Assembly: GCF_964194025.1 (NCBI RefSeq)
Contig: NC_134471.1
Coordinates: 11,284,001-11,348,000 of the forward strand
DNA: 64,000 bases
Direction: 5' to 3'
Source: Convolutriloba macropyga
Lineage: Eukaryota
The position numbers and the translations under genes were made by a program. Below, piece after piece: positions 3,936 through 64,000 of this stretch (positions are counted from its first letter, which is position 1; each line of letters begins with the position of its first letter). The notes beneath the pieces were generated by a model. It was not told the origin of the DNA and made no database searches. It saw only the letters and a list, made by a program, of their open reading frames with translations.

Positions 3936-5155
3936 TAAATGATTTTAATAGCTGGGATAGATGAGCGAGGCTATTGTTGGCCTTCTATTGGCGTATTTTT
4001 ACGTTTCCAAGTGTTTGGATTTTATTGGGGATTACACAAATTTATCGGAAATTTGAAAGTACCAATGATCACGACGCTCATCAGGCAAACCATTAGCAAT
4101 TGAAGCAATTAAAATCTCTGTGCTTTCGTATCATCTAAAAGGTAAGTTTATGGGGTTTGGCAGATGATCGAATGCATATTGTTTCTAAGCTAGATGAATG
4201 TGAAAGCACCTTTCATCCCTAAAGTACGTTCCTAAACAGACCTTGAAGTCTGTCCGAGTGATGCAAATAATATTCACCCACTGTACTGGGAGGGGCGGGC
4301 ACAAACGGAAAACCCTCCCAACAGTCAATGTATTGTTGTAATCACTGACTTGATAATCTTTCAGAAGTGATGTCAACTGAGCAACTGAACACATTAAACT
4401 TAAAGGGGTCAACGGAAATAATTTGCGAACTATTGTGTGAGTGCAGTTTCATGACTTTTTTGTAGACTGTAATTTAGGATGCAGAAATCGAGGCTGAAAT
4501 TTAGCCGACATAGAGTATAAGTAAACCTTAATGGGATCTTTTCCGTTTGTGCCCCCCCCCCCCAGCTTAGTAGGTGCTTATTATTTCCACCCCCCCCCCC
4601 CCCGACGCACGTGCCTTATTTTTACATTTTGATTTAACATGTAATAACACGTGCTCTGTAACTTGGAAGGGGGGCACAAACGGAAAAGATGTTTGTCATA
4701 GCTTTAAAGCAAATAACTTTTCTGTTACAGATTACTGCGTGCACAACATAACATATTTGCGAGGCGTTTTCCATAGCAGTCTCTACGAGTATGAGGAAAA
4801 ATGGGATCAAAAGGTGTTCGTATGTCAGCAAAAACAAATGCGAGAGTATGTATCAAAAATGATAGACGGCTTTCGTGACTGGATGTTGAAAAAGAAAGCA
4901 GAGAGAATTGTGCTGGTGCTTTGTGATGCAGTAACAGACGAAAGATTTGAAAGATGGCAATTTGATTTGAAATTAGACGATGAAAATATTGCGCCTGATG
5001 CGTTAGTATATCCGCATTTATCACTCTGTGGAGCATAGTAGAGAGAAAGAGCAGTTTTTACAGAAACTTCTTTTGTCATTTAAGCGATTATTTTTTCGAA
5101 TCTTACATCATTTACTATATCTAAAATGATATTTGTTGTGCAGTTCAGACTTGCT
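3936..5155 (+). repeat. Direct segmental duplicate of 1-1173
   Basis: High identity from TAAATGATTTTAATAGCTG to CAGTTCAGACTTGCT, with a ~45-bp indel near 4470-4510. The left copy probably continues outside the window. Confidence 0.95.
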
Positions 5156-20600: not shown

Positions 20601-21103
20601 AAATCGGTGTGCTTTCATATGTGCTCAGACACTTGCCACTTACAATTCATTAACATGAGGCTTAAAACGTCTGTCGGACAGCAACGTGGATAGCAATCAG
20701 AATGAAAAGACAAGAGCTACGATTGTATATTCAAGTTGTTGTATCTGCCTGCACTTGTTCTCTACAGGTCAATAGGCGACATGATTAAGACTATCAAGAT
20801 GGTGAACGAGAAAGTTGGCCATGATCACTCAATGAGCGATCTTTTTTTGAAGAGAACTGGTTACGGTCACACTCGGGGATTTATTCATAAGGTGCAAAAC
20901 AAAAAGTACCATTTGAAATTTGCGTTTTCCCAACGTGGCGTGATCAAGTGAAATAGCCTCTCCTGCGAAGTCGTAGAAACTGATAGCGTGCTAGAATTAA
21001 AGGTCAGATTGGACACTCATGTAGAAGAATTCGTTTCGATTGGTATGACCAAATTATGCTGCTTGTCCAATGAGTGATATAACAAAAAATTGTTGACATT
21101 GTC
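5617..21103 (+). repeat. Macrosatellite: 12 tandem ~1.29-kb units derived from the 3' half of a CR1-type LINE
   Basis: GTGAAAAATGTAC unit starts at 5621, 6911, 8210, 9501, 10783, 12054, 13352, 14640, 15928, 17223, 18521, 19810. Each unit encodes broken RT motifs (EQFDFR, VPHRRL, WIESF, GIP*GSVLGPLLFIVYFNDLP) and a CR1-like C-terminus (LPTL..RGDMI, TRG, FSQR, LKVRLD). Confidence 0.97.
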
Positions 21104-41721: not shown

Positions 41722-42859
41722 CTTTGAAGTGCCTCAATTGAGATATCTATGAATTCTGATAATTATGGTTTAATTGTATTTTTATAGATTTAAATGTTTG
41801 TAGTAGAGATCTAAGTTGTTAAAATTTTGAAAGTAGAGCCTCGAAGTCAAGGAAAGTATGGAAACTTTAATTACAAATATTTTCTGTCAAATTTGAAGCT
41901 ATTTTTGACCAACACTGTAAATAAACATCAAATTTTATCTTGTGTAATTGTGTGTAAGTTTGATCAAAAGCGGTAGAAGCTGAAGTATTCAAAATAATGT
42001 GTGCGCTTTTGAAAAGTTGCATGTGCGTTTTTATTGATGGTATTGTTTGTTTGTATACAGTATGTTTACTGAAAGAAGCATAAAGAATGGTTTGGATTTA
42101 TCGTGCTGTCATACTAAAATGGATTTAAGTTTATCCATAGTCTTGTGCACATAAGTAAAGTGGAATTTCAATGCATCTGTCGGAATGATTTTTGTGTTAA
42201 TTAGCGGCAGATAAAAGTGTTTTATCCGTGCTAATTTTTGGATTTTGAGACATTTTAACCCCCTAAAGAAGCACTACACATTAAATTTATGATAACTGCT
42301 GAGCTGCCAGCAATTTCAGAAAAATGATTAACCGACGCATTCAATGGTGTCCCGCTTTTTCACCCCTGTATCATTTAACCCCTCTATCTTTTAACCCCTC
42401 TATCATTTCACCCCGATTTTAATCTTTCTACTAAATAAGGATAATTAAATTAGAATATAATCTTTTCGTCATGCCTCGCGGGCCATGGCCATGCCTCAGC
42501 GGCCCGTGGGACTTGATATGAAACTATCACAACCGAACGTGGGATTAATTTATCCACTTAATTATGACAAAACATGCCTTTAATGTTGACTGCTATTTTC
42601 AACAATCAAAAACTGCAATTTTAAAATGGTCGCCTCGAAAACGAGGATAACGAATTGTTGAACAGTGAGCTGAACAATAACCACCGGTAAATAGGAAAGG
42701 AAAAATAAAGAATAATCCTTTGTTGGGAGAAAACGCAACAATAAATAGGTAAAAGTTTCTGTGCAAATTAATATTTTGCAGATTCCTCTTATTTTGGAAT
42801 CCTCCAGGTCTTCTACTAATATTAATATTTATACATGTCTAAATTCGTTTTAGTTTGGC

Positions 42860-44047
42860 ATGACTAGCAAATCTAAAAATGACGTGGACAGTTGTTCTAT
42901 TGGTCAGAGCTGGAAAGAATTGGACCAGCTTTTGAGACCCCTGATTGGGAAAGAGAACCATTTGTCGCAATTACAGCTGACCTCAACCCTCCGATCTGTT
43001 CAACAAAAGATAAAACCTCACTTGGGAGTTTTACGTGATTGCGGAATGATCAAAACTTTCGAATCCTACATATTGCAAATGTTTGCTGCGTATTTCAGCT
43101 CCGAGGCGCTGCCGCAATTTTTGTTTAGCCTTAAAGCTATCCACAATTCAAGTGTATGCGGTGATATGAGCAATGTTTTCCTGGGCAATAACGTTGGTAT
43201 TGGGACTTTGAAATTGGAAAGCTTTATTGATTCTTCCCTTCTGCTGAAGGCATCGGTGACATGTGCAATTGAAACAATGAAAATGGTAGATAATTTATTC
43301 AATTTATCAACTAACTTATTCGAGAAGTCTGTTGATTTAATCAAGTCATTCATTATATACAACGTCGGAACAATCGATGGCTTGAACCTCGAATTTATTT
43401 TTGACAATTATTTTGAGATGTGCACAAATTCAGGTCAAAATCCAGATGGTCAATTTTCGCCTGATAAATTATTGCAGAATTCTAAGCAATATGATAACGA
43501 AAAGCTTGCTGACATTGACAGAAAATTTCACGACGCACTAAAATTTCTCTTTTCGTTATCGCTGTTTGACGAACTCTTTTGCAACCCGTTAAAGTTGTTC
43601 TTGATGACCAAAATTAAACAATCGGTTACTCAATTGTGTTCATGTGACTTTGCAAGTGCCGAAATTGAGTTTGGAGTCGTTGAGCAGTACGCCCAACAAA
43701 GGCTATTAGTTTTTGCTTGGGATATTTTGTCGCTCGCTTGGACTCGTGAAGGTGACGGAGAAAAGGGAAGTGCGTGTGGAAAACAAGGAACACATAAATG
43801 GTGGAAAAATTTCATACAAGATATTGTGATTCAGGAAGTGGCTTTGTTTCGCATTGAACAGATATTTAACATGATTGTTGAGTATCCTGACTCCCAACCA
43901 GCAATCGGGAATTTGATTTACCTGCTCAAAGCTAAAAACTTGTCAGATCATTTGGTCAATTCGGTCAAATCAGCGTTTGAGACGCGGTTATTGCATCCCG
44001 GGGCTAACACGAGTGAGATTTTGACACAGTATATCAACGCGATCAAG
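42860..44047 (+). CDS. ANAPC2: Anaphase-promoting complex subunit 2, exon 1 (gene span 42860-49060, ~864 aa)
   Basis: RIEQIFNMIVEYPDSQPAI..L..AFETRLLHPGANTSEILTQYINAIK matches APC2; donor AAG|GTTAGA. Confidence 0.93.
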
Positions 44048-44295
44048 GTTAGATTTTAGTCTTTTGTGGTCATGGTTAACAATAGTGCTGGTTGTTTAGT
44101 AAGTTCTGATCAACAATATATCACAAATGCCGGAGTAAGCTCACCCGTAGTCATTGAACTTTGCAAATTTTAAAGATCTTGTCAGGATATTTATATTGAT
44201 CTTGTGAAATTTTGAAATAACTTATCAAGATACGTAACGAGTTATGAAATGTTTTGGCAGCTAGTTCCATGACTGATATTTTTGGAATTGTTCAG

Positions 44296-44387
44296 GTGTT
44301 GCAGCAGTTTGATGAGACGTGTTCTATTCTGGACAGAACATGTGCACCACTGATTAAGTACCTCAGGTCTCGAGAGGACACTGTGAG
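44296..44387 (+). CDS. ANAPC2: ANAPC2 exon 2
   Basis: TTCAG acceptor, AG|GTAACA donor; VLQQFDETCSILDRTCAPLIKYLRSREDTVR matches APC2 P...YLR.REDTVR. Confidence 0.92.
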
Positions 44388-46552
44388 GTAACATTTTTAG
44401 AGTTCTTTATTTCAAACAGCCAAATTTTTTTTCAAAAGCGCTATTTTTCAAGAATCCTAAAGAATCATAGACAGATAAGGCATGTACATGGGTCGGAATT
44501 AAAACCATTTTATGTTTCTCCAACAATAAATAGTAATGAATTTTCAGTGTTCGATTTTTATTGGGTGTAGATTTAGGCTCTTTTGTCAGTTCAATTGATT
44601 TGGTTAATAATTTCAACAATTGAAAAAATGTCCTTCTTTGCCACTGCACTGTATCATGGTGTAGATGAACTTTTAGGTTTTGAAGGACCTTCTTTTTAAA
44701 ATAATTATTTGATTCATTTTTTGTTTTGGGTGTTTTTTCCTGCTATTTACAAAAAGTTTTTTATATATTACAGATTATATTTTGGGAATTAGTCGTGTAT
44801 TCATTTTTTTGTTTTGAGCTGCTCTCTTTTGTGGTGACTTATAGGACCCGATAATTGAGCGTGCGTTTTTTCGTCATTCAAAATCTTGACAACTTTTTGC
44901 TTGCTCGTTTTGCAGCAACTGCACGAGAATCATTTTCTTTGCTCGGATTGTTTCCTTTTCTCGTTTAGAGTGGCAGCGTAATTCATTTAGGTTTATACTG
45001 TTTTGCTCTATATTTTTCTACGCTCGTTTCAGTGCTTGACATAACTATTTCCCTCATTTTTCGTCAAATAATGAATAGTTTTTTTTTCTTTTTTTGAAAT
45101 GTTTTCGAGTGAAAATTGGCTCTTTTTCTCATATTTTGACTCTCTGGCGCGTGTACTACTTTGTTCGGGGCTTCAGGTTGATTCATTATTTCTGTCATTA
45201 GTTTTTGTGTGTCCTTCAATTGATTGTTTTTTTCTATGATTTGATTTGTTCGGCAACTTAAGAAATATTCTGTCTGAGTAACATTGTTTCTCAGCAGAGT
45301 GTAGTGTTATTTGTCTGGATGGTTTTGCTATGTTTTTGAGTTACCAATTCGAAATGCTTCAATCCGATTGTAATGTTTTGGCTCTATATTTTTATTTTCC
45401 ATTTTCTTCAGTTGGTTTAAAAAAATTTATGTAGACTACGCTGGTTTCACTGCTTGCGGTTACTGTTTCTCGTTTTTCATCGAAGTGTGAAAAAATTTGT
45501 CAGCCCTTTAAAAAATGTTTTTGAGTACAGTTAGGCAATATAAATTGTTTTTTTTTGTAATTTTTTTTCGTATTTTTATGTCTATTGCAAGAATTTTCTT
45601 CCATTGTGTTCTTGTGTCGTTTTTCGGCAGACCTCTTTTTATGATTGATTTTAATTTTTCAGCATCTGTTCAATAATAATTTTCTGTCTCAGCAACACGT
45701 TTTCTGAGCAAGTGCACTATGACGATGCTAAATTTTGGTTGCTTGAAAAAGACTTATGTAAATCTATACAGCACGAATTTAATATTTTGAAATTCACTTA
45801 GTACATTCTTCTCACTTCAGTTCAGTTGGTTGCTCGTATACTTAAATAAAAAATCTGCGGCAGAAAAAGCGTTTTTACCAGACCCGCACTCCGAATAGCA
45901 CTTAGCAAAAAAACCGCAATTGAAAGCCTTTATTGGAAAGGAAATTGCACCGACAACTGTCTCGACATAATACAGCACTTAGGACCACACCTACCAGAAG
46001 AGAGTTATCATATGCACTTTTACTTGTTCGGATGATTTTGCCTAGTTTAGAATTGTAGGTTCAAAGTATTGAAACTAGTGAAGTTATCGAAGCTTAAGTT
46101 AGGACCAGAACTTGCCCCGCATCTGTCGTTTGAGAGGCGTTTTCCATTTTAAGTCAGCTATGCTTCAATACACAAGCGACCAAAGGGTTGAATTGCCGTA
46201 TTTCGTCTCAAGGGTTCTTTTTCAAGTCTCGTTTTTTTTTAAAAAAAAGAAACGCCTTATAAAGATATTTGTATGCTGAACGTGTAGCGTAAATGTCATT
46301 TGACTCAAGAAAAATAAGGCCGACCGCATTTTTGAAACATCGGTGGAATTGAAACAAATTGAACAGGTGTTACCTCAATTGGTGTCGCACTGTTTTGCCG
46401 CATTTTATCCGTAGCAATGCTTTGATGCTAGTTTGCCTGCCTATCCTTGTTAGATTAAATTTTATTTGAACAGCAAATGTGGTCATCTAGTTTTTGACGA
46501 ATCTGCTCTAGCAACTAAAAATTCGCTTGATCTGTCATTGAGAACATTATAG

Positions 46553-46731
46553 ATGCATTGTTGGGAACATGACTGAAGATGCAGAGTTAGCTGGAGAACT
46601 GTTGAGACGATGTGAGCTGCAAGTGGCACCAGATCCATTTGAGAGTGACGATGAGGATGTTGATTGGAGAACTTGGAAACCCAAGTCACGTGATTTTGCA
46701 CCCAGTACCTTTGCACATTCAGGACGTTCAG
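46553..46731 (+). CDS. ANAPC2: ANAPC2 exon 3 (3' boundary uncertain)
   Basis: TATAG acceptor in phase 2 gives RCIVGNMTED..LAGEL..SDDEDVDWRTWKP, matching APC2 (IV..LT...LA.EL...W.PDP). A phase-1 donor is needed for the next exon. Confidence 0.8.
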
Positions 46732-47924
46732 GCATGGTTTCATTCTCATATCACATTCAAAAAATTGGAATTAAGTCCACTCGAGCGAGCAATTGTTGTA
46801 AACGTGTCTTTTGCAAAATTATTGCTTCAAATTTTTTCGTTTGCTTGGTCCAAAGAAACCGGTGAAGTAAAGCCGAAGAGCATAAATTCTTTGAGCAGCT
46901 CTGTTAGAGATTTACTAAGCTCCAATTTGAACTGTCCGGTTTGGCAAAGCTGCTCAGGAACGCTGCTCGAGGTGGTAGAAACTCATAGTCTCAAGGGTGT
47001 TTTGGGAGGTTTGGACGGCGCCCACGCTATCCTCAAACTTGTATGCTCGCCAACAGGCTGGGCATCCATCAGCTGAAAGTAGCTGCAACCAAAGCCAATC
47101 ACTCGCCGGTGATTTGAGAAAAATTCGTGCGAAGGTGATGGTTATTTGTTGTTGAAATAAATAATAAAATCTGTAGATTCAAGTATTGACATTTCCTGAA
47201 ACCATTTTCTTTTAACCGAACAGATAAGGCTATCTTGAATTTTTTTGGCACTCTTCCACTATAAATAGTAAAATGTTGATTGTTATGGTAAGGACTTTTT
47301 TAGGCTCTTAAATTTTTATCGATGTATTATGAACCAGGATGTTTTTGTGGTTCTCAAAAAATCAAAACATTGTTCTCCAGGGGGTTGGGGCGGGAGAAAG
47401 AAACAATTCTCATTTTGATTATTTTGTTTTTGTCTTGGAAATTTGAAACAAAATTGACGCACATATTTAAACTAAGCAAATCGTCTACGAAAAATTAAGA
47501 AAGCTAAGATGGCAATGAAGAAGCTAAAATTGTGTTGCTGTACAACTGATTCAACTCAAAATATGGTTCTATTTGATGGTTCCGATGCTGTTTTTTCAAA
47601 AAACCTTCATGTGTACTTAACTTTCTAGCATCATGTCTTGCAGCAAATTGTTCTCATTCTTTTGGGTCAAAATTAACTCAGTTTGAAACAACTAATGGTT
47701 CTGTCGTGTTATATACTCCCACGTGTCAGGAGTAGAGTGGAAAACAGCCGTTATAAAAAAACAGCTTTTTAATGGAACTTGAATTCCAGATGATATACAT
47801 GTTATCTTTAACCAATTCTACGAAATTTATCAATACTCGAACAGAACAGTACTTTCATGCACTTTTAAAAGATACTCGCTAGGGATCCTTTCAAAAATTG
47901 CTGTTAACTGTTTGTCCTTTACAG

Positions 47925-49060
47925 AATGGGAGATTATGACGGAAACTCCAGTTGTTCAGTCTCATCGGAATCAGGACATAATGAGCATCCTTGTCAACAT
48001 CTACGAATCGAAAGAGATCTTTGTTAACGAGTATCGATCTCTACTTGCGGACAGAATTTTACACAGCTCCAGTGATTTCGACTTGGACAAAGAAATTCGC
48101 CATTTGGAGTTATTGAGTTACAAGTTTGGTCATGACGAAATAAATAAGTGCAATGTCATGCTCCGTGATGTCGCGGAATCGAAGCGAACAAATGATCAAT
48201 TAAGTCAAACGTGGTCTGAATTTGATACTAATTTACAGCCAGAAGACCAGGAAATGTCTGAAAATAACGAGAACTCTAAAATCCAGAAGCCTGAATTTCC
48301 TATAAGAGCGACTATTTTGTCTGCACAATTCTGGCCGACACTAAAAGACGAAAAACTTGAATTACCACCTACTTTAAAGCTAGCGTTCCAAGCTTATAAG
48401 ATGAGTTTCGAGAGCGTGAAACAGAATCGAACGGTCGAATGGCTACATCAGCTGGGAAAAGTTGACATTGAATTGGAAACAAATGATGGCTCAGTTAGAT
48501 CTTTCACAGTAACTCCGGCACAAGCTGCAGTTTTGAGCATACTTGAATCACATCCTAAAATGAACCTGGATGATTTGAGTTCAATGCTCGCTATTTCGAC
48601 ATCAGCGGTTCGTAGAAAACTCGGAGCTCTTTTTTCACTCGGCGTTTTAGTCGAGCGCAATGGTATTATCGAAGTTGTAGAAGATTTCACGCATTCGTCA
48701 TCCAATCAGAGCTCGAGTGGTACTGCCACGTCATCACAAGCTGGAACGAGTTCGTCTTCGGCTGGACAGAGTATTGCCTTATATGGTAATGATGAAGATG
48801 ATAACAACTCGGCAATGGCGAATGATAAAGAGCTGAAAGAGGAAGAAATGAAATGTTATTGGATGTACACAGTTTCTATGTTGCGCAACCTTAAAAGTAT
48901 GTCAGCCGAAAATATACACTCGATGATTAAGATGTTCTCGAAAGCTGGAAATTCAACAGAGCTGTCTCAAGATGATTTAACAGCATTTTTGAACAAGAAA
49001 GTTCGAGAAGAGTTGCTGTGTTACTCAAATGGTGTTTACAGATTACCAAACAAGAACTAA
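47925..49060 (+). CDS. ANAPC2: ANAPC2 last exon (cullin homology and winged-helix domains)
   Basis: DIMSILVNIYESKEIFVNEYRSLLADRIL, CNVMLRDVAESKR, ILSAQFWP, W...LG.V.IEL, VTPAQA, IHSMIKMF, NGVYRL; stop TAA at 49058-49060. Confidence 0.95.
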
Positions 49061-51411
49061 TGGAAAAAGAACTTATTTGTAAATATCGGTTGTTTTGATG
49101 ATTAGTTGCCACTGTTAAAAAAAATTTGTCCCCTAAATTTTTGTAATGAGCTTTATTTGAGGATAGACAAACATAGATGTCTTCTAGCGAATAAAATTGG
49201 ACTTATTCTGTTTTGCACCCAGTAATTTTTGGACCCAATTAAAAATTGTTTTGTTATACAGCACATTACAATGTAAAAAAAATAGCAGGTGAACCGGGGT
49301 CTGTGCATGTTAAACTGGGTGGACGAAAAAAGAAAGACCCATAAAATCATTGTTCAAATGTGGTAATAAAGCGCTTATTTTTGTAATAAATGTCAGGAGT
49401 GTGTAATACTTGCCACGGAAATTGGTATTCAGTAGAATTTTTTGCAGAAAACAAATTAGCTCTTTTTCAATAATCTATTGTGGCAATATGTTTGTTTGTT
49501 GATCGTCAGTAGTATGTTGATAAGAAATCCTATAACAAATCCGGGATAAGAAATCCTATAACACGACGATAGAGATTATACGCCTCAGAAAGCTTCACTT
49601 TGAAGAAACACATGTAATGTATGTTTTTTAATTGCTCTCAAACGAAGCTTTTAGCAATCATTTGAATTTTGTTGTTCTTTTTGTGACTTTACTCCTTGAT
49701 AGATTTTTTGTCCGGTCATTTCATTTTTCAAGTGACTACCATACCAAGTTTAGTTGGATTTGAACATTTCCTAGACCCAACAAAATTTCTTTTTTTTATG
49801 AAAGATCTTAATGAAAATGTCCAAAATTACGCCCAAAAAGTCTGTCATTCGGACTCTATACCAACAGCAATCTCCCATGCCAAGTTTGATTGGATTTGAA
49901 CTACTACTTGACTTCCTGAATTTTGCCTGATCTAGATTGCTTTTATTCAGAATTTAAGCCGCTAACTTATTGCAACAGTTACTACTAAATGCCAAATCGA
50001 AAGTGCGCGAAAGTTGGTTTCATTTAAATTTTAGTAGTGTTATGTAGTAAGCTGCAATATCATTTATGCACCTGAGTTGAGTTATAACCATCTCCCCGGC
50101 TAATTTAAATCACAATTGACAGCCCGCGTGTTGGCTGAAATTGCGGACGGTCATTGGTTATGTTTAGTTCCGTTAAACCCAACCATATTTAGTGAAGAAA
50201 GGCATTAGTGGCATTGCTTACAAGGAAGCCGTTGATAAATTGCGTTTACGTTACTGTTTTGGATATTCTATATTTATTGGAGTTGCAGGTGGCTTCTGTG
50301 GAGTTGCAGGTGGCTTCTTTTCCTATATCGCTACGATATAGGAAAATTAGCGCAATTTGCATAAGATTGTTCCTCTGACACTCATTTCTAGTTTTGTTTG
50401 AAATACCACTGCTTAAACAGTTTTGTATGTATTCGCTGCTCTTCAGTCACTTCACCAGGCTTGAGATGATCAGTCCACCTAATTCCCTCGACAACAATTA
50501 CTCTGAAATTTGGTTAATTGTAAATTTCCTGTGATTACAGTTGACTGATCAAAGTTTTCTAATGGTCATTTTTGCAGAATCACTCCAGTAATCAAACTAA
50601 GGAGTAACAAGACAACTAGTTTAAATTCACTCTGTAACACGACCACTCTGTAAGTTTCAAAAATAGAAGAACTTCAAAACAATTGTAACTAAATTGATAT
50701 CGAGCAGTTCAGTTCTTGCAGGATCTTAGCAGATAACCGTACCAATTTGGCTAGGGTGACAGTTGACAATCTTGAAAGAAATTGTGCAAGTGATTAATTT
50801 TGAATAGAGAACTAATTTTGAATAGAGAACAAATGTGATTAATTTTGAATAGAGAACTCAAAATTGAATTATTGGAGCGCAGAATTGTTCAAAAATGTCT
50901 GGTAAGCAATAATGAAAACGGAAAAGGAAGCCTTAGAGAATCGTGAGAATATTGGCAGGAAACGTGGATTTGAAATGACCGAAGGTAAGGAATAATCTTC
51001 AAAATTGAGGACAATGTTTTGTAACTATATCAAACATGCCAAATTTGGTTTCCTTTGTCATTTAAATCTAAGCACTTGTCTATAATAGGCTCTAAAACCA
51101 TCATTTAAGACCGCTAAGGAAATTGAAACCCCTCCTCGGCTAAGGTAAGGAACATTTGACTGCCCGCAAGCGTTGGTTGGGAGGTATTTGGCGATGTTAG
51201 CATGTTGTGTTTAGTCCAAGAAAACCCAACGATATTGAGCAGAGAAATGCGTCGAATCGTTTATGTAGAATTCTTTGAGCGTTTGAACGATGGTATTTTG
51301 ATTTGTTCCTAGTAGTAATAGTTAAGCAAAAGTGGGGGGGGGGGGGGGGGTAAAAGGAAGTAAAGGAAGTACCTATGTATTAAGATTAGGTATAGCCCAT
51401 TTTCCCTCAAA

Positions 51412-52470
51412 TCCCAAAGATGTACCTCACAGCTTGATACCCACGCTGTTCACACGAGGGGGATTAGCAAGTTAATCCCTTAATATTAAATTAGGTCATT
51501 TACTCATTCCCATATTGCACTTTAATAATGTAAATTTCCAAAGACGTACTTCACAGCATGACACCCAAGCTGTTCTCTCAAAAGGGATTAGCTAGGTAAT
51601 GTTTTTATATTAAATTAGATAGGGTGACTCATTTACACTTATGTACGGCTTACGTGATTTTCAAAAGTGTACCTCACAGCATGATACCCAAGCTGTTCAC
51701 ACGAAGGGGATTAGCAAGACAGTGCCTTAACAAATTAGTAAGGACATTGACCCCCTACCATATTACAGTTTACTTATGTAAATTTCAAAAGACGTACCTC
51801 ACAGCATGACACCCAAGCTGTTCACACGAAGGGGATTAGTAAGACAGTTCCTTAACAAATTAGTAAGGACATTGACCCCTACCATATTACAGTTTACTAA
51901 TGTAAATTTCCAAAGACGTACCTCACAGCATGACACCCAAGCTGTTCACACGAAGGGGATAAGCAAGATAGTGACTTCACAACAAATTAATAAGGTCATC
52001 GACCCCTACCAAATTACACTTTAATAACGTAAATTTCCAAAGACGTACCTCACAGCATGACACCCAAGCTGTTCACACGAAGGGGATTAGCAAGATAGTG
52101 ACTTCACAACAAATTAATAAGGTCATCGATCCCCTACCAAATTACATTTTAAGAATGTAAATTTCCAAAGATGTACCTCACAGCATGATACCCAAGCTGT
52201 TCACACAAAGGGGATTAGCAACGTAATGTTTTAATTTTAAATTAGATAGGATGACTCATTTACAATTATGTACGGCTTAGGTGATTTTCAAAAATGTACC
52301 TCAGAGCATGACACCCAAGCTGTTCACATGAAAAGGATTAGCAAGATAGTGCCTTAACAACAAATCAGTAAGGTTATTGACCCCCAACCATATTACACTT
52401 TATTAATGTCAATTTCCAAAGACGTACCTCACAGCATGACACCCAAGCTGTTCACAGGAAAGGGATTAGC
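51412..52470. repeat. ~125-bp minisatellite, 9 units with a conserved ~50-bp core
   Basis: Core GTACCTCACAGCATGACACCCAAGCTGTTCACACGAAGGGGATTAGCAAG near 51422, 51546, 51669, 51794, 51918, 52045, 52173, 52295, 52423. Confidence 0.95.
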
Positions 52471-52811
52471 ATAAATCATTTTCTACATAACTTTCATTGT
52501 CTTAAAAAAATGTTTTATAAGATCTCATTGGCTACGAAGTTTTTGTTCCCTATTGTTCTTGTTTATACTTAAGTTTCATTGGCTCCACATTTCGAGGTTT
52601 TTTTAAGATGTTTCAATCATTTGTTTCTTTCCCCTTATTTTATTCAGTTACCCTTATTCATCCAGAGTTTCTTATTTGTTGCTTCCAGATCCCATATTTT
52701 GCTCAATTCACCAAAAGTGTCTACCAAAATTAGTAATTCTATTAACAGTAAATCTAATTCAAAATTCTAGACTGCTAATCATTTTTTTAATAATCTAACC
52801 TAGAAAAAAGA

Positions 52812-53345
52812 ATGTCTCTCGTTGAGTTTGATATTGAGTGCCTGGAGGGGCAAATTATTAAGGCGTTGGGTGTTTTCATGGACGGAATTGTTTTGGGATA
52901 CAGTTTCCTCCCACCCAAAGACTACAAACCTACTTTTCAAGCAAAGTGGAACACTAAAAATTTACATGGGTTTAATTGGAACAGTGGAAAACTGGAATAT
53001 ACTGAGTTGTCATCAATCATTCACCAACATTGTTCACCTACAACTGAATACTTTGCAAAGGGGTTGGAGAAGTGTAATCTCCTCTTAAAATACTTGTGTT
53101 AAGATGTGGAGAATCTAGACGATCTTGGTTGTCCAAAAGTTTCCAAACTTCTCAACAACTTGGATACTGACTGGGATTGTAGCAACTATCCGTATCGACA
53201 CCAAAAAACCTTTCACTGTGCAGAGAAGAAAGCTTATGCATACGGAATTTGGACTCTTGATTTTTTTGATAATGTATTATATTTGATTTCTAATTGTATT
53301 GGTGATCGTTTTGTAATTAATTGTTTTTGTTTTACTACTTTTTAA
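52812..53345 (+). pseudogene. DEDD/DnaQ-like exonuclease-fold ORF of the type associated with Polinton/Maverick elements; one internal stop
   Basis: Two ORFs in the same frame split only by TAA at 53100-53102; motifs FDIECL, LHGFNWNSG, AKGLEK, NLDDLGCP, HCAEKKA. Family link is from recall, not searched. Confidence 0.6.
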
Positions 53346-53644
53346 ATCAGAGAAAAGTCGCACTTGAAGGTCATTTGCTGAGTACAGATTACATGCTTAG
53401 ATAAAAATGCCAAAAATGCACGTTTCAAAATAATAATAGATACCTCTTTTTAAATTGGGAAACAAAAAAAAAGTAAGTTTAAAATGACAATTTTTTCATT
53501 GGTCAGTTGTTTAAATTTGTTAATGTAAAATTTTAAATATTGTTCTCGTTTATACTTAAGTTTCAGTGGCTCCATATTTCGAGGCTTTTTACGATATGTC
53601 AATCATTTGTTCTTTTCCCCTTACTTTATTCAGCTCCCCTTTGA

Positions 53645-53985
53645 TAATGTCAATTTGCAAAGACGTACCTCACAGCTTGATACCCACGCTGTTCACACGG
53701 AGTGGACAAGCAAGATAATCCCTCAATAACAAATTAGGTAGGTCATTGACCCCTTCCCACATTACACTTTACTAATGTCAATTTCCCAAGACGTACTTCA
53801 CAGCATGATGCCTAAGCTATTTACACGAAGGGGATTAACAAGATAGAGACTTAACAGCAAATTAGTTAGGTCATTCACGTTTTCTCATATTACACTTTAC
53901 AAATGTCAGTTTACAAAGACGTACCTCACCGCATGACGTCCAAACCGTTCACACGAAATGGATTAGCAAGATAATCCCTCATTAA
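53645..53985. repeat. Second block (3 more diverged units) of the ~125-bp minisatellite
   Basis: Same core near 53664, 53793, 53920. Confidence 0.9.
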
Positions 53986-55216
53986 CACATTCCAATTCTT
54001 AAGGGAAAAAAGACACACCTATTCTCAAAAATACACATTTATTGGCAACAAACACTCAATTCTTGACACGAAACATCCAATTACTGACAAAAATAGCAAA
54101 AGGTTGAAAAAAATACCAAATTCGTACCAAAAGAACCAATTCTAGCCCGAAAATACCCGTTTCTAGTCCAGAAATATACCATTTTTAGCAAAAAATACAC
54201 AATTCTTATGTTAACAAAAATTCGTAGTTCCTGCCAAAAGAACCCAGGCCTAGCAAAAACTGCGCAGTAATTGCCAAACGAACACTCAAATCTTCCCGAA
54301 AAATACCGATTTTTACCACAAAGTGGAGATATCTTGTCAAAGAACAACCAAACTCCACCCAATTTGTTAGAATTTTTAAAAAATACCCAAATAGAAAACG
54401 AAATAACAAAAATTCGTCAAATATTTATACAAAACATATCATAAATTAGACAATCTTGCCATCATTTGTATTTATCAAATTTCCTCCCGACAATCCATTT
54501 ATTTAGTGACCTGACAAACGTCAACTTTAGACATCGTCTTTTGTGATGATGAGTCTTCTCCGCTGATTGATATAGGTTTTATGAGCACAAACTTGTCACG
54601 AATTATTTACTGTCGTCTAATATTAGTCATAAAATGCATTGAGAAAAAGTGTAGTTCAACTACTTCTTATGATTGCCACAATTGCGGATATCCAGGCATT
54701 GTATGGGCTCATTGAACTAACGTGAACAAAATATAATCCACACTAATGGCAATATGATTTTTCATACTTTATCAAAGCATGTAGAGCTCACGTGATATAA
54801 GTCTTACTCATAGTATCGTAATAATTACGTCACTATTGCGTCATAATGATTTCAGTTTTTATCATACTGTATAAACAAAAGTCCAATTCATTCTGCTTCT
54901 TTTTTCCTTCTGTTCAACAGCTCAACAAAAGCTAGCTTTTATTCTTATCTTGAGACAATTTCTTGCTCCTTCTGTTGCAAAACCAAGTTATCATTTATAA
55001 ACCCTTCAGTGAATATTCGTCATCTCCAGGACCTCTTCCTATTTCCCATTCCACGTAAGTCATTTCTGTTATGAAATATGAAAACAAGCAAGAAAAAACA
55101 AACAAATGGCTATTTTTATCATCGTACTCATTCGCAAATAGCATATTAATTCTTCAGAGAGAAAGATTCACCAATATGGGTAATTTATCCTTAGCTTTAG
55201 TTTTAGTATTTCAACC

Positions 55217-55690
55217 GTGTTCAACCAAAAAAAGGCTGAAATAATGAACATCAAATCTATGAAAGTGAACGAAAATCTCAAAGCCCACATCTTTTTCCCC
55301 GATTTCAATGATGATGTTGCAATTATAAAGGAGAGAAAAACTTGCTACGGCTGGGTAGCTGATCCTCCATTCTCAATTCCGAGGCAGCTCTTGGTCTTCA
55401 TTATTGCTATCGAGAATTTGCCTGAAGTCTCTGTTCCATACAAACAAACAACTGTAGACTCCTACAAAAACCGCTTCGAAAACACAAATTTGCAAGTGTC
55501 AGACAACATGGAACTGAGCAGATCAGTCCGTGAGCGATTCTGTGATTATGAGTTTTCCTATAGACCAATGTATGAAAATCAACTGGGATTTTTTGAGGAG
55601 GAGAGAGAACTTAAATCTCTCTGGTGTGTGTCTGACGAGTATGACAATTTGCAGGAGCAGAGACCTCATCGGGATTGTGACGACTGGTAA
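55217..55690 (+). CDS. Orphan intronless ORF (157 aa), possibly Polinton accessory gene
   Basis: Open frame with protein-like composition lying between two Polinton-type relics; no motif recognised. The first ATG is a few codons in. Confidence 0.35.
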   Translation: MFNQKKAEIMNIKSMKVNENLKAHIFFPDFNDDVAIIKERKTCYGWVADPPFSIPRQLLVFIIAIENLPEVSVPYKQTTVDSYKNRFENTNLQVSDNMELSRSVRERFCDYEFSYRPMYENQLGFFEEERELKSLWCVSDEYDNLQEQRPHRDCDDW

Positions 55691-55742
55691 AATGGGTCAT
55701 TGACAGAGAGTATCATTGCAAGTATAGAGGAAGAGAACGCAA

Positions 55743-56147
55743 TTGAGCTCAAGTTTGGCAGCAAAAATTGCAACAAGGCAGTCCACTTTTTGTTTTTTTT
55801 CTACAGAAACTGGACAAGATACAATGAAAGAAGTACAGGGAGCATCGACTGTTGAAAATACTTCACTCAAGTCTGCCAAAACCATCCTCAGTAAAGTAGT
55901 CGATGAATGTGCAGATAACCAAGATCATATTTATTCGCATGATGCAATTGAAGCAATATCTGAAAAAACATCCCTCAAATGTGAGCATACGGCGTATTGT
56001 ACACAAAAGACAGTCAAGAGAAGGGCTCCTGATGTCAATAACCCTGAGAGAGAGGGAAGTAGAAAGCCAGAAGTTGATGACAAGAAAGAAAAAATGTGTC
56101 CTCCATCGGGCAAATTGAGACGACATACTGAGTTATATGGTAACTAA
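55743..56147 (+). CDS. Orphan ORF (134 aa), hydrophilic; 3' part mirrored at ~63828-64000
   Basis: Open frame only; inverted copy at the window end. Confidence 0.25.
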   Translation: MSSSLAAKIATRQSTFCFFSTETGQDTMKEVQGASTVENTSLKSAKTILSKVVDECADNQDHIYSHDAIEAISEKTSLKCEHTAYCTQKTVKRRAPDVNNPEREGSRKPEVDDKKEKMCPPSGKLRRHTELYGN

Positions 56148-56456
56148 ACTAGCAATATGAGACGTTATTCCTTTTGCAGATTATTTATGTTTGTATTTCC
56201 TGTATGATTTCATATCTGATAGTATTTTTAGTGACGACTGATTGACTTATTAATTTGAAATTTTCTGTTTTACACTCAGAAAAGATGAAGCTCATGTATG
56301 CTTTTGAATTAATACTTTGATACTAATATTTAATTGAGTTTTAAAATGCATTTTCGAAAACAATTTTTATCAATAGTTCAATTTAGAATTTAAATATTTA
56401 TCGAAAAAAGCTTGTTTTGTAATATCTGCTTTTTTTCTCAAAAATGCGGGTTAATA

Positions 56457-57005
56457 GTCGTTGCAGAGACTGTGAAGTTGATTGGAAATAGTTGGGATGC
56501 AAATGATATGGTTATCAGATAATGGACCGTAGTCGACTTACGGACATACGACCACAAAATATCTGTAAGGTTTTCATGTAGATAGATTTATTAACAACAG
56601 TATTTCAAGTCCCTGAATGAGCTGAAAGACCAGATTTTTGAGGCAGAAATGAGCAAGACGCGTATTGCGCATAAAGAACCAATAATTGTTGGGTTCTTTA
56701 TCCTCTTGTACGCCAAAATTACAATGTTGCAACTTAAAAACATTTTCTTATCCTCTTTCTGCGATACAAACAAATATGAGTTGATTGAAATGGATACTGA
56801 GTCTTTACTTGGCACGTAGTGAGGGAAAATTTGACGAATTCAGTTGACCAGAAATACATCAAGTGCGGTACTGGATGATGCAGAGCGATTGCAGTGATAA
56901 TTTCGCAGCAGACTCTAGCAACAGTTGTTTACCACGAATACTATGCCATAATCATGGAACCTTTGATAAGAGAACACCTGGTTTTTCTAAAGAAGAATTT
57001 TCGGT
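56457..57005 (+). pseudogene. polB: Protein-primed family-B DNA polymerase fragment (Polinton/Maverick type), decayed
   Basis: VVAETVKLIGNS..YGYQIMDRSR (motif B KxxxNSxYG), HKEPIIVGFFILLYAKITMLQL, YELIEMDTES (motif C DTDS), DKRTPGFSKEEF; frameshifts and stops. Confidence 0.85.
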
Positions 57006-57119
57006 TAAGCAGTTTTAGATATCGATACATATCATTAAGTATAAAATTTACAAATTTTTTAAGTGGAAAACCATTTCCATTAGTTTTTTTTATTGTTTTG
57101 AAAAAAAGGTTTTACTAAA

Positions 57120-60100
57120 GAAAAATCTTTTTAAAAACGTAATTTTTATGAGGTTTTTAACAAAAAAAATGTAAATTTAGATGTTTTTTATCTATTTTTA
57201 CGTTTTTCAGTTTTTGAAGTTTTTTTAAGTTAATTTTTCAATTCAATTGTTTTTTTTATTAAAAAATGTTGTTTTACTAAAATAATTTGTTTTCAAAAAT
57301 GACGTTTTTTACATAAGGTTTTTAGCCAAAAATGTAAATTTTGTTGTTTTTTATTTTTCTATTTTTACATTTCTCAGTTTTGGATTTTTTTTCATGTAAA
57401 ATTTTCAATTTAATTGTTTTTTTTATTAAAAATGTTGTTCTACTAAAATAATTTTTTTTCAAAAATGTCGTTTTTTACATAAGGTTTTTAACCAAAAATT
57501 TAAATTTTGTTGTTTTTCATTTTTCTATTTTTACATTTTTCAGTTTTGGAAGTTTTTTTCTTGTAAAATTTTCAATTTAATTGTTTTTTTTATTAAAAAA
57601 ATGTTGTTTTACTAAAATAATTTTTTTTCAAAAATGTCGTTTTTTACATAAGGTTTTTAACCAAAAATGTAAATTTTGTTGTTTTTCATTTTTCTATTTT
57701 TACATTTCTCAGTTTTGGATTTTTTTTCATGTAAAATTTTCAATTTAATTGTTTTTTTTATTAAAAATGTTGTTCTACTAAAATAATTTTTTTTCAAAAA
57801 TGTCGTTTTTTACATAAGGTTTTTAACCAAAAATTTAAATTTTGTTGTTTTTCATTTTTCTATTTTTACATTTTTCAGTTTTGGAAGTTTTTTTCTTGTA
57901 AAATTTTCAATTTAATTGTTTTTTTTTTAAAAAAGGTTGTTTTCCTAAAATATATTTTTTTCAAAAATGTAGTTTTTTACATAAGGTTTTTAGCCAAAAA
58001 TGTAAATTTTATTGTTTTTTATTTTTCTATTTTTACATTTCTCAGTTTTGGATTTTTTTCATGTAAAATTTTCAATTTAATTGTTTTTTTTTATTAAAAA
58101 TGTTTTACTAAAATAATTTTCTTTTCAAAAATGTCGTTTTTTACATAAGGTTTTTAACCAAAAATGTAAATTTTGTTGTTTTTCATTTTTCTATTTTTAC
58201 ATTTTTCAGTTTTGGAAGTATTTTCTTGTAAAATTTTCAATTTAATTGTTTTTTTTATTAAACAAATGTTGTTTTACTAAAATAATTTTTTTTCAAAAAT
58301 GTCGTTTTTTACATAAGGTTTTTAACCAACAATTTAAATTTTGTTGTTTTTTCGTTTTTCTATTTTACATTTTTCAGTTTTGGAAGTTTTTTCTTGTGAA
58401 ATTTTCAATCTAATTGTTTTTTATTAAAAAAGGTTGTTTTCCTAAAATATTTTTTTTTCAAAAATGTAGTTTTTTACATAAGGTTTTTAACCAAAAATGT
58501 AAATTTTGTTGTTTTTTCATTTTTCTAATTTTCAGTTTTGGAAGTTTTTTTGTAAAATTTTCAGTTTTGGAAGTTTTTTGTAAAATTTTCAATTTAATTG
58601 TTTTTTTTTATTAAAAAATGTTGTTTTACTAAAACAATTTTTTTTTTCAAAAATGCCGTTTTTTACATAAGGGGTTTATCCAAAAATGTATATTATGTTG
58701 TTTTTTTATTTTTCTATTTTTCCATTTTTCAATTTTTTAAGTTTTTTCATTAACAATGAAAAAAACTTCAAAAGCTGAAAAATGGAAAAATAGAAAAATA
58801 AAAAAAAAACAACAAAATATACATTTTTGGTTAAACCCCTTTTGTAAAAAACGGCATTTTGGAAAAAAAATTGTTTTAGTAAAACAACATTTTTTAATAA
58901 AAAAACAATTAAATTGAAAATTTGTTTTACTAAAATAATTTTTTTTCAAAAATGTCGTTTTTTACATAAGGTTTTTAACCAAAAATTTAAATTTTGTTGT
59001 TTTTTCATTTTTCTATTTTACATTTTTCAGTTTTGGAAGTTTTTTCTTGTAAAATTTTCAATTTAATTGTTTTTTTTAAAAAAAGGTTGTTTTCCTAAAA
59101 TATATTTTTTTCAAAAATGTAGTTTTTTACATAAGGTTTTTAGCCAAAAATGTATATTTTATTGTTTTTTATTTTTCTATTTTTACATTTCTCAGTTTTG
59201 GATTTTTTTCATGTAAAATTTTCAATTTAATTGTTTTTTTTTATTAAAAATGTTTTACTAAAATAATTTTCTTTTCAAAAATGTCGTTTTTTACATAAGG
59301 TTTTTAACCAAAAATGTAAATTTTGTTGTTTTTCATTTTTCTATTTTTACATTTTTCAGTTTTGGAAGTATTTTCTTGTAAAATTTTCAATTTAATTGTT
59401 TTTTTTTATTAAACAAATGTTGTTTTACTAAAATAATTTTTTTTCAAAAATGTCGTTTTTTACATAAGGTTTTTAACCAACAATTTAAATTTTGTTGTTT
59501 TTTCGTTTTTCTATTTTACATTTTTCAGTTTTGGAAGTTTTTTCTTGTGAAATTTTCAATCTAATTGTTTTTTATTAAAAAAGGTTGTTTTCCTAAAATA
59601 TTTTTTTTTCAAAAATGTAGTTTTTTACATAAGGTTTTTAACCAAAAATGTAAATTTTGTTGTTTTTTCATTTTTCTAATTTTCAGTTTTGGAAGTTTTT
59701 TTGTAAAATTTTCAGTTTTGGAAGTTTTTTGTAAAATTTTCAATTTAATTGTTTTTTTTTATTAAAAAATGTTGTTTTACTAAAACAATTTTTTTTTCAA
59801 AAATGCCGTTTTTTACATAAGGGGTTTATCCAAAAATGTATATTATGTTGTTTTTTTATTTTTCTATTTTTCCATTTTTCAATTTTTTGAGTTTTTTCAT
59901 TAACAATGAAAAAAACTTCAAAAGCTGAAAAATGGAAAAATAGAAAAATAAAAAAAAAACAACAAAATATACATTTTTGGTTAAACCCCTTTTGTAAAAA
60001 AACGGCATTTTGGAAAAAAAATTGTTTTAGTAAAACAACATTTTTTAATAAAAAAACAATTAAATTGAAAATTTTACAAGAAAAAACTTCCAAAACTGAA

Positions 60101-62860
60101 AAATGTAAAAATAGAAAAATGAAAAAACAACAAAATTTACATTTTTGGCTAAAAACCTTATGTAAAAAAACTACATTTTTAAAGAAAAAAATTTTAGGAA
60201 AACAACATTTTTTAATAAAAACAATTAAATTGAAATTTTTACAAAAAAACTTCCAAAACTGAAAAATGTAAAAATAGAAAAATGAAAAAACAACAAAATT
60301 TACATTTTTGGTTAAAATTCTTATGTAAAAAAAACTACATTTTTGAAGAAAAATATTTTAGGAAAACAACATTTTTTAATAAAAAACAATTAAATTGAAA
60401 ATTTTACAAAAAACTTCCAAAACTGAAAAATGTAAAAATAGAAAAATGAAAAAACAACAAAATTTACATTTTTGGTTAAAAACCTTATGTAAAAAAACTA
60501 CATTTTTGAAGAAAAATATTTTAGAAAAACAACAATTTTTAATAAAAAACAATTAAATTGAAAATTTTACAAGAAAAAACTTCCAAAACTGAAAAATGTA
60601 CAAATAGAAAAATGAAAAAACAACAAAATTTAAATTTTTGGTTGAAAAACTTATGTAAAAAACGACATTCTTGAAAAAAAAATATTTTAGTAAAACATTT
60701 TTTAATAAAAAAAACAATTAAATTGAAAATTTTACATGAAAAAACTTCCAAAACTGAAAAATGTAAAAATAGAAAAATGAAAAAACAACAAAATTTACAT
60801 TTTTGGTTATAAACCTTATGTAAAAAAAACTACATTTTTGAAGAAAAATATTTTAGGAAAACAACATTTTTTAATAAAAAACAATTACATTGAAGACTTT
60901 ACAAGAAAAAACTTCCAAAACTGAAAAATGTAAACATAGAAAATTGAAAAAACAACAAAAATTAAATTTTTGTTTAAAAACCTTATGTAAAAAACGACAT
61001 TTTTGAAAAAAAAATTATTTTAGTTAAACAACATTTTTTTAACAAAAAAACAATTAAATTGAAGGTTTTACAAGAAAAAACTTCCAAAACTGACAAATGT
61101 AAAAATAGAAAAATTAAAAACAACAAAAATTACATTTTTGGTTAAAAACCTTATGTAAAAAACGACATTTTTGAAAAAAATTATTTTAGAAAAACAACAT
61201 TTTTTAATAAAACAATTAAATTTAAAATTTTACGAGAAAAAACTTCAAAACTGAAAAATGTAAAAATAGAAAAATGAAAAACAACAAAACTTACATTTTT
61301 GGCTAAAAACCTTATGTAAAAAACGTCATTTTTGAAAAAAGGTTATTTTAGTAAAACAACATTTTTTAATAAAAAAACAATTAAATTGAAAATTTTACAA
61401 GAAAAAATCTTCCAAAACTGAAAAATGTAAAAGTAGAAAAATGAAAAACAACAAAATTAACATTTTTGGTTAAAAACCTTATGTAAAAAACGACATTTTT
61501 GAAAAAAATTATTTTAGAAAAACAACATTTTTTAATAAAACAATTAAATTGAAAATTTTACGAGAAAAAACTTCAAAACTGAAAAATGTAAAAATAGAAA
61601 AATGAAAAACAACAAAACTTACATTTTTGGCTAAAAACCTTATGTAAAAAACGTCATTTTTGAAAAAAGGTTATTTTAGTAAAACAACATTTTTTAATAA
61701 AAAAACAATTAAATTGAAAATTTTACAAGAAAAAATCTTCCAAAACTGAAAAATGTAAAAGTAGAAAAATGAAAAACAACAAAATTAACATTTTTGGTTA
61801 AAAACCTTATGTAAAAAACGACATTTTTGAAAAAAATTTATTTTAGTAAAACATCATTTTTTTAATAAAAAAAAACAATTAAATTGAAATTTTTACAAGA
61901 AAAAACTTCCAAAACTGAAAAATGTAAAAATAGAAAAATGAAAAACAACAAAATTTACATTTTTGGTTAAAAACCTTTTGTGAAAAAAAGGACATTTTTG
62001 AAAAAAAGTTATTTTAGTAAAACAACATTTTTTAAATAAAAAAACAATTAAGTTGAAAATTTTACAAAAAAACTTCCAAAACTGAAAAATGTAAAAATAG
62101 AAAAATTGAAAAAACAACAAAAATTAAGTTTTTGGTTAAAAACCTTATTTAAAAAACGACATTTTTGAAAAAAAAATTAAAATTATTTTAGTTAAACAAC
62201 ATTTTTTTAATAAAAAAACAATTAAATTGAAAATTTTACAAAAAAACTTCCAAAACTGAAAAATGTAAAAATAGAAAAATGAAAAACAACAAAATTTACA
62301 TTTTTGGTTAAAAACCTTTTGTAAAAAAAACGAAATTTTTGACAAAAAGTTATTTTAGTAAAACAACATTTTTTTAATAAAAAAACAATTAAATTGACAT
62401 TTTTACAAGAAAAAACTTCCAAAACTGAAAAATGTAAAAATAGAAAAACGAAAAACAACAAAATTTACATTTTTGGTTAAAAACCTTATGTAAAAAACGA
62501 CATTTTTGAGAAAAAATTATTCTAGTAAAACAACATTTTTTTAATAAAAAAACAATTAAATTGAAAATTTTACAAAAAAACTTCCAAAACTGAAAAATGT
62601 AAAAATAGAAAAATGAAAAACAACAAAATTTACATTTTTGGTTAAAAACCTTATGTAAAAAACGTCATTTTGAAAAAAAGTTATTTTAGTAAAAACAACA
62701 TTTTTTAATAAAAAAAACAATTGAATTGAAAATTTAACTTGAAAAAAACTTCAAAAACTGAAAAATGTAAAAATAGATAAAAAAAACATCTAAATTTACA
62801 TTTTTTTTGTTAAAAACCTCATAAAAATTACATTTTTAAAAAGATTTTTCTTTAGTAAAA
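57120..62860. repeat. ~167-bp AT-rich satellite, roughly 34 monomers, inverted about 59903
   Basis: ACATAAGGTT recurs near 57311, 57477, 57646, 57812, 57981, 58143, 58311; T-rich left of the axis and A-rich right of it. Confidence 0.97.
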
Positions 62861-62971
62861 CTTTTTTTTCAAAACAATAAAAAAAACTAATGGAAATGGT
62901 TTTCCACTTAAAAAATTTGTAAATTTCATACTTAATGATATGTATGTATCGATATCTAAAATTTCTTAACC

Positions 62972-63517
62972 GAAAATTCTTCTTTAGAAAAACCAGGTGT
63001 TCTCTTATCAAAGGTTCCATGATTATGGCATAGTATTCGTGGTTAACAACTGTTGCTAGAGTCTGCTGCGAAATTATCACTGCAATCGCTCTGCATCATC
63101 CAGTACCGCACTTGATGTATTTCTGGTCAACTGAATTCGTCAAATTTTCCCTCACTACATGCCAAGTAAAGACACAGTATCCATTTCAATCAACTCATAT
63201 TTGTTTGTATCGCAGAAGGAGGATAAGAAAAAGTTTTTAAGTTGCAACATAGTAATTTTGGCGTACAAGAGGATAAAGAACCCAACAATTATTGGTTCTT
63301 TATGCGCAATACGCGTCTTGCTCATTTCTGCCTCAAAAATCTGGTCTTTCAGCTCATTCAGGGACTTGAAAACCTGTGGTTAATAAATCTATCTACATGA
63401 AAACCTTACAGATATTTTGTGGTCGTATGTTCGTAAGTCGACTACGGTCCATTATCTGATAACCATATCATTTGCATCCCAACTATTTCCAATCAACTTC
63501 ACAGTCTCTGCAACAAC
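62972..63517 (-). pseudogene. polB: Mirror copy of the Polinton-type PolB fragment
   Basis: Reverse complement of 56457-57005 with the same truncation points; motif C reads MDTVS here. Confidence 0.85.
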
Positions 63518-64000
63518 TATTAACCCGAATTTTTGAGAAAAAAAAACAGATATTACAAAACAAGCTTTTTTCGATAAATATTTAAATTCTAAATTGAACT
63601 ATTGATAAAATTTTTTTTCGAAAATGCATTTTAAAACTCAATTAAATATTAGCATCAAAGTATTAATTCAAAAGCATACATGAGCTTCAGCTTTTCTGAG
63701 TGTAAAACAGAATATTTCAAATTAATCAATCAATCAGTCGTCACTAAAAAAACTATCAGATATGAAATCATACAGGAAATACAAATAAAAATAATCTGCA
63801 AAAGGAATAACTTCTCAGATTGCTAGTTTAGTTACCATATAACTCAGTATGTCGTCTCAATTTGCCCGATGGAGGACACCTTTTTTCTTTCTTGTCATCA
63901 ACTTCTGGCTTTCTACTTCCCACTCTCTCAGGGTTATTGACATCAGGAGCCCTTCTCTTGACTGTCTTTTGTGTACAATACGCCGGTTGCTCACATTTGA

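Follow-up and report, generated by a model that had tools for sequence, protein, structure and literature searches.

A stretch of 64,000 nucleotides from the genome of Convolutriloba macropyga (contig NC_134471.1, C4:11284001-11348000 of the 1.18-Gb genome; hereafter the window) contains most of a large palindrome, originally predicted from its letters alone as at least 8 kb of mirrored arms with relics of a Polinton protein-primed DNA polymerase B (pPolB) around a satellite core. The palindrome is real and larger than predicted, extending over 17.3 kb from position 51311 to window-equivalent position 68616, the right part having been read from the adjoining stretch. It is a whole mobile element, one integrated copy of a dispersed family, and is neither an autonomous Polinton nor a classical Foldback element; we describe it as an unusually built Polinton derivative that is non-autonomous, polymorphic and present in high copy number. 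The original prediction had raised a non-autonomous, Polinton-derived family of the fold-back type as a possibility, which is borne out by a target-site duplication (TSD) and by junctions shared at many loci.

Following the suggestion to look past position 64000 for the arm ends, the right end was located at 68616, with GTTCCT on both sides of the element. Mirror symmetry halts exactly at AGTAGT-type termini bordered by this direct repeat. Polinton ends follow an AG rule, and the ends found here are likewise AG-type with short repeats, this copy having AGTAGT on the left and AGTAAA on the right and others AGTAGT at both. Among 14 palindromic elements read at both ends the TSD is exact in 12 and has a single mismatch in two, its 6 bp being the usual length within the 5-8 bp typical of Polintons, and its sequence differs from locus to locus. 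Short-read contigs of runs X1 and X4 carry an empty allele, in which the left flank leads into one GTTCCT followed by 25-30 bases identical to the right flank, and the filled junction is present in contigs of run X2 (run X5 gave no contig over the flank). With one GTTCCT at the empty site and a filled junction also present, the element was therefore inserted as a single unit and the site is polymorphic. All of these runs are from one study, one of them being possibly the source of the assembly, and the empty allele itself is absent from the window. Its flank differs by ~6% from that of the window (50950-51310), exceeding the difference between the arms of the element.

Related sequences are widespread. 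A search with the inner arm gave 42 matches among 40 scored out of 626 candidates, many of them as convergent pairs, and the gene carried by the arms has 1478 candidates in the genome, of which 150 were scored; the open reading frame (ORF) regarded as an orphan in the original prediction thus has many relatives. Both arms were compared at 28 loci, where the differing TSDs and the insertion polymorphism are those of a unit inserted at dispersed sites. Twelve of 14 palindromic elements measured 12.5-18.7 kb, and two with internal duplications 23 and 26 kb. Loci were taken from the top matches and by pair distance, and these sizes and counts do not represent a random sample.

The two arms of a locus are homogenised with each other. 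Same-locus arms form a clade in all 28 elements (support 0.40-1.0, at least 0.9 in 24), and the distance between them ranges from 0 to 5.3%; in 25 of the 28 no other locus is as near. Quartet sites concordant with locus outnumber those concordant with side by 605 to 1 in the gene and 520 to 2 in the inner arm, and there are nearly no side-concordant sites even for loci ~1% apart. Several types of 25-bp end sequence recur across subfamilies and coding elements, and are usually alike at both ends of a copy. Such sharing of ends with coding Polintons of the same genome is that of a non-autonomous derivative, and the self-complementary build of the element, with one end duplicated, is that of a snap-back molecule.

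Each arm runs from the end through 128-bp repeats and the family gene to a 550-bp piece of the polB palm and part of the spacer located after the polB stop codon in coding relatives. The predicted pPolB relic (56450-57000) was confirmed, matching at 76% DNA identity the stretch for the palm within the 1485-aa ORF of these relatives; it is a broken palm piece only, not the polB gene of an autonomous Polinton. Searches of Pfam, NCBIfam and PDB sequences did not name the 1485-aa ORF directly, and its 60-64% identical homologues carry PF03175. The best genome matches of PF03175 were tried as the source of the relic and did not match it; the relic's own relatives did, and include long frames 6-10 kb from the same end sequence. 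As a separate observation, the genome is very rich in Polintons, with 3891 first-look PF03175 candidates of a polymerase group other than that of the relic.

Three coding elements measure 16.1-17.1 kb, with exact TSDs, ordinary ~1-kb terminal inverted repeats (TIRs) made of the same 128-bp repeat, and the same ends as the palindromic family. One of them, scanned for genes, encodes an rve integrase, an A32-type ATPase, a weak adenain match and pPolB, and the model of its capsid candidate (predicted local distance difference test score, pLDDT, 89) matches double-jelly-roll capsids at E 2e-15. No integrase, ATPase, protease or capsid gene was found in the arm, where a six-frame search of 52471-57300 against the coding relatives returned repeats, short spacer and polB only; the arm outside this interval is repeat array. 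The polB-side order of this content indicates that each arm is, by its sequence, the deleted polB-side half of a coding Polinton.

In two other coding elements the position directly upstream of polB is taken by a 205-aa homologue of the N-half of the family gene (E 3e-18 and 2e-13), a homologue not found in the first three. From these matches the ~300-codon family gene is identified as a putative Polinton accessory gene. Between elements the pN/pS ratio is 0.26 in the N-half and 0.80 in the C-half, calculated over non-independent pairs, a pattern that shows apparent purifying selection on the N-half. The ~300-aa protein has no family in Pfam, NCBIfam or PHROGs and no Atlas match, its fold model is useless (pLDDT 33), and almost all of its homologues are without a name, the only named one being from the acoel Convolutriloba macropyga. 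Three further loci (L129, L130 and L131, at C7:29.67M, C11:35.08M and C13:2.50M) are Polinton-like, with homologues of integrase, capsid and protease plus one of the family gene; no polB match was seen in the 9-10 kb taken, and one of the three is nested inside a palindromic copy. Two distant variants of the family were also noted (L132, C7:60.845-60.852M, and L133, C3389), one with five tandem partial gene copies, the other having 167-bp repeats together with the extra 156-codon segment and a gene of the 205-aa type.

The centre of the family is a hairpin. Searched genome-wide as the original prediction proposed, the axis pattern gave 58 matches representing 42 places (reversed control, 0), with loops of TAC/GTA at 34, TGC at five, TAA at two and AAC at one. 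All four variants described as private to the monomers beside the axis are present on both its sides; they are family-wide, and only the AAC loop is private to this copy. Of 19 axes, three were dropped for N; in 15 of the other 16 a two-base difference between the sides, 21-22 nt away from the loop, is kept, and variants farther out are common to both arms of a locus. This asymmetry, at up to ~25 nt from the axis, is inherited. More diverse copies contain a ~700-bp core closing in a GC-rich, T-shaped tip that has a pair of 7-bp ears and loops of 3 nt (fold z -17). Eight of the 16 distinct tips read were identical, one side has been lost at or near the tip at about 10 of the T-core places, and new axes have formed in single copies. 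No exact match to the tip was found in viral contigs and none worth noting in Rfam. We rejected the T-core as a free MITE (a miniature transposable element with inverted repeats), as all 29 of the best core loci have 167-bp repeats adjoining them (scored: 40 of 122 candidates). One sub-branch (L026:2350-2470, L109, L110 and L111) carries, one monomer from the axis, an insert of 81 bp whose AGTAGT-G-run sequence resembles a terminus; this insert occurs at 10 places, all inside family centres, and the 167-bp repeat as subterminal repeat of a second free end was rejected as unproven.

The monomer beside the axis of this copy matches the first monomer outside the ~700-bp core, and in a tree that takes a distant homologue as root and plus-strand arms only, the copies with 3-nt axes come together in a single clade (support 1.0), placed within the lineages that bear the core; four T-core rows of this tree are mislabelled by a loose pattern as having the 3-nt axis too. 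These two observations suggest that the spacerless axis is a central deletion, not the original fold-back point, and that the branch with this copy likely lost an older T-hairpin core, leaving the 3-nt loop. A fold-back at 59903, as first proposed, is not supported, the axis being inherited. The accompanying proposal of a head-to-head dimer of a hairpin-ended element fits the T-shaped core of older branches, though not a fold-back at that point in this copy.

In the copy under study (Table 1), the inverted alignment of 55975-58748 with 64000-61236 has 92.8% identity. The unique part of the arms has 32 substitutions in 1115 columns, with exactly eight in the outer 230 bp, where about eight had been counted by eye, and overall the arms are 2-3% substitutions and a 97-bp indel apart. 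The axis CATT-AAC-AATG is present where predicted and, in single-stranded form, folds with z -8.6, none of 200 shuffles being as good. It is not the only one, and the centre of the unique arms falls at 59987 instead of 59903. Monomers of the 167-bp repeat run 10 minus, one plus, six minus and 18 plus, giving three strand changes. The halves of the central duplication (57771-58923 and 58922-60074) differ by four substitutions and eight gap columns; among the contig pieces listed none bridges its junction at 58923, so the duplication, alone among these features, may be real or assembly-made. Doubled centres are also seen in other copies, some across assembly gaps, and inner-arm blocks are serially tandem-duplicated on one side of the axis in several (L112 at C8:53.51M, L029-L030, L081 and L089), some beside assembly gaps.

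Table 1 Features of the palindromic element, in window coordinates
Feature	Position	Strand	Remarks
Left TSD copy, GTTCCT, 6 bp	51305..51310	+	Second copy after right end, window-equivalent 68617-68622
Whole palindromic element	51311..64000, running on to window-equivalent 68616 (C4:11352616)	.	17,306 bp; right end 4.6 kb beyond window
Left terminus: 5'-AGTAGT, 25-bp end sequence, G-run	51311..51413	+	Common to coding Polintons
128-bp subterminal repeat array, ~8 copies	51414..52471	+	Repeat also fills ~1-kb TIRs of coding relatives
Extra segment, in some copies only, ~105-bp direct repeats at borders	52472..53638	+	Broken 156-codon frame 52812-53279, one in-frame stop, no family assigned
Second, short 128-bp repeat array	53639..53991	+	
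Putative accessory (family) gene, ~300 codons, broken here (premature stop, frame breaks)	55244..56147	+	Open in many other copies
Protein-primed polB palm relic, internal 550-bp piece	56450..57000	+	Several stops, frameshifts
Piece of post-polB-stop spacer of coding relatives	57025..57086	+	82% identical
167-bp repeat array, 10 monomers	57085..58747	-	
1150-bp direct tandem duplication with axis and one plus-strand monomer	57771..60074	.	
Axis CATT-AAC-AATG, first copy	58748..58758	.	
Axis CATT-AAC-AATG, second copy (originally reported)	59898..59908	.	
167-bp repeat array, 18 monomers	59910..62861	+	
Inner right arm: spacer, mirror polB relic (about 62974-63524), family gene 3' end	62863..64000	-	

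Elsewhere in the window, exons of anaphase-promoting complex subunit 2 occupy 42854-49060 on the plus strand, the element lying 2.2 kb downstream. A tandem array of 12 units of 1298 bp, ~95% alike, spans 5617-21103, the first unit being without a frame over 83 codons. A ~1.2-kb direct repeat (1-1174 and 3936-5155, 92%) surrounds a reverse-transcriptase fragment (1915-2592), and a HORMA-domain frame is found at 4574-5038, inside its second copy.

We consider it probable that the family is a helper-dependent snap-back (hairpin) replicon, which coding Polintons of the same genome copy and insert in trans and which is integrated as a dimer. An ancestral Polinton would have folded back just past the end of polB, placing its polB-side end at both termini. 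The helper polymerase would start at the AGTAGT ends, and the displaced strand would fold into a full-length hairpin. Fold-back synthesis from the hairpin, or repair, would recopy one arm from the other and hand on the tip unchanged, and it is this proposed recopying that would account for locus-specific clades with a kept tip. The opened duplex, now with two proper ends, would be inserted by the helper integrase, and these ends would explain integration with a 6-bp TSD. Mobilisation in trans by helper enzymes is inferred from the shared ends and the length of the TSD. After insertion the centre would decay by one-sided deletions and duplications, the arrays would vary in copy number, and the arms would diverge with some conversion. 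Precedents are described for parts of this scheme: the AGTAGT repeat resembles the end duplication by which adenovirus achieves jumping-back initiation (PMC4974454), and both snapback genomes and the switching of templates by a protein-primed replicon are on record (PMC4974454, PMC8235507).

Several results weigh against a snap-back replicon. No extrachromosomal, read-level or RNA evidence for it was seen in the material used, which was assembled contigs only. In 16 axes the loop showed no flip/flop relative to the side markers, and T-core arms have no side marker. Arm divergence is patchy in eight of 15 segments, this element included (p 0.001), as in-place gene conversion would produce, although four of the eight are inflated by repeat misalignment. 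Changes in both arms and changes in a single arm show no significant difference in selection (48:92 versus 42:118 synonymous to nonsynonymous, p 0.13) and in mutation spectrum (p 0.10). Finally, with the coding relatives examined the relic shares no more than 76% identity, too little to name any of them as the exact helper.

A more elaborate proposal, possible but in our view doubtful, is that the element is a satellite of an animal polintovirus. It would be a replicon of half length, with a Polinton origin of the protein-primed kind at one end and a closed, T-shaped hairpin like that of adeno-associated virus (AAV) at the other, integrating as an opened dimer, with one selected accessory gene and with tandem repeats padding it to helper size for packaging in helper capsids. 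The packaging idea is based on size, 12 of 14 copies being 12.5-18.7 kb against 16.1-17.1 kb for the helpers.

Among competing explanations, an ordinary non-autonomous Polinton derivative resembling a giant MITE survives best, though we judge it unlikely. Here a single ancestral fold-back would have been followed by helper-moved whole copies, homogenised only after insertion by chromosomal gene conversion. The patchy arm divergence and the null selection and spectrum tests agree with it, as do the one-sided central deletions at about 10 T-core places, which are typical of chromosomal palindromes; in-place gene conversion probably also acts and is a candidate arm homogeniser. As sole process, however, it would have to be complete early and weak thereafter, since side-concordant sites are near zero at loci ~1% apart yet arm divergence ranges over 0-5.3%. 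Whole multi-base end types that match at both ends and recur in coding relatives also argue against it. An assembly artefact, with the palindrome produced by mis-joined alleles or by chimeric reads of the fold-back type, we regard as very improbable. In its favour are the unbridged 58923 junction and, in several copies, doubled centres and N gaps close to the axis; against it stand the 2-3% substitutions and 97-bp indel between the arms, TSDs differing per locus, and coverage of the axis bin by short-read contigs in 4 of 4 runs. Mis-joined alleles, which the original prediction named as its own refutation, are unlikely because both the empty allele and the filled junction occur in short-read contigs. 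The chance of a locus-specific accident, whether a breakage-fusion scar or an inverted, one-off duplication of a resident Polinton remnant, is negligible: the spacerless axis and the central rearrangement of this copy might suggest one, but symmetry stops at AGTAGT termini with a direct 6-bp repeat, an empty allele exists, 42 places share the axis, and many loci have the junctions in common.

Foldback elements and MITEs are non-autonomous, with long inverted arms, internal tandem repeats and an unstable centre, and the present family is like them in all of these respects. It departs from them in that its ends, TSD and gene relics come from co-resident Polintons and not from a cut-and-paste transposase family. 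Parvoviruses such as AAV have T-shaped terminal hairpins; judged by shape, the two-eared, GC-rich hairpin found here is similar, and hairpin-primed replication is proposed for both. Such replication has also been proposed for palindrome-ended polinton-like viruses (PLVs) and virophages of Halocafeteria (10.64898/2026.07.28.741278). Unlike in AAV or the Halocafeteria PLVs and virophages, the hairpin is central in the integrated form, not terminal, the arm is without a Rep gene, and no flip/flop was found. Rolling-hairpin replication of the parvovirus type is not indicated, the loop being tied to one and the same side marker in all but one of 16 axes and the arm ORFs having no Pfam family.

Polintons/Mavericks (polintoviruses) are described as 13-25 kb long with 6-bp TSDs and inverted repeats of 100-1500 bp (10.1101/2023.08.22.554363, PMC6431247, PMC11296320). 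The element shares their AG-type ends, 6-bp TSD and length range, carries a pPolB relic, and has coding relatives in the genome that hold the core genes. It differs in that its inverted repeats of ~8.6 kb make up the whole element, in its central hairpin, and in being without integrase, ATPase, protease and capsid. Polinton-related insertions reported from butterflies (10.1101/2025.02.07.637071) likewise have genes duplicated in inverted repeats (there ~2-kb TIRs) and mobile derivatives without polB; as described, they keep a unique middle with virion genes, whereas here only the hairpin tip lies between the arms. Snapback genomes of AAV and subgenomic template-switch products of phi29 (PMC8235507, PMC4974454) are also self-complementary half-genomes with one end duplicated and helper-dependent. 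Those are presented as transient by-products, in contrast to the present family, which is heritable, integrates, has several subfamilies and keeps a fixed centre and a conserved gene of its own. The full-text literature searches made returned no description of a wholly palindromic non-autonomous Polinton; Repbase, outside that search, may hold entries for non-autonomous Polintons.

In the literature examined, Polinton replication has been modelled and is still a model. Recopied arms, a fixed central hairpin and ends that swap with those of the helper would be the genomic footprint of single-stranded, protein-primed intermediates, and the family provides a high-copy, polymorphic marker for seeking such intermediates in a living animal. 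It also offers a natural series for following the chromosomal decay of 12-19-kb palindromes, and would represent, in heritable form, a counterpart to the defective snap-back genomes of viruses.

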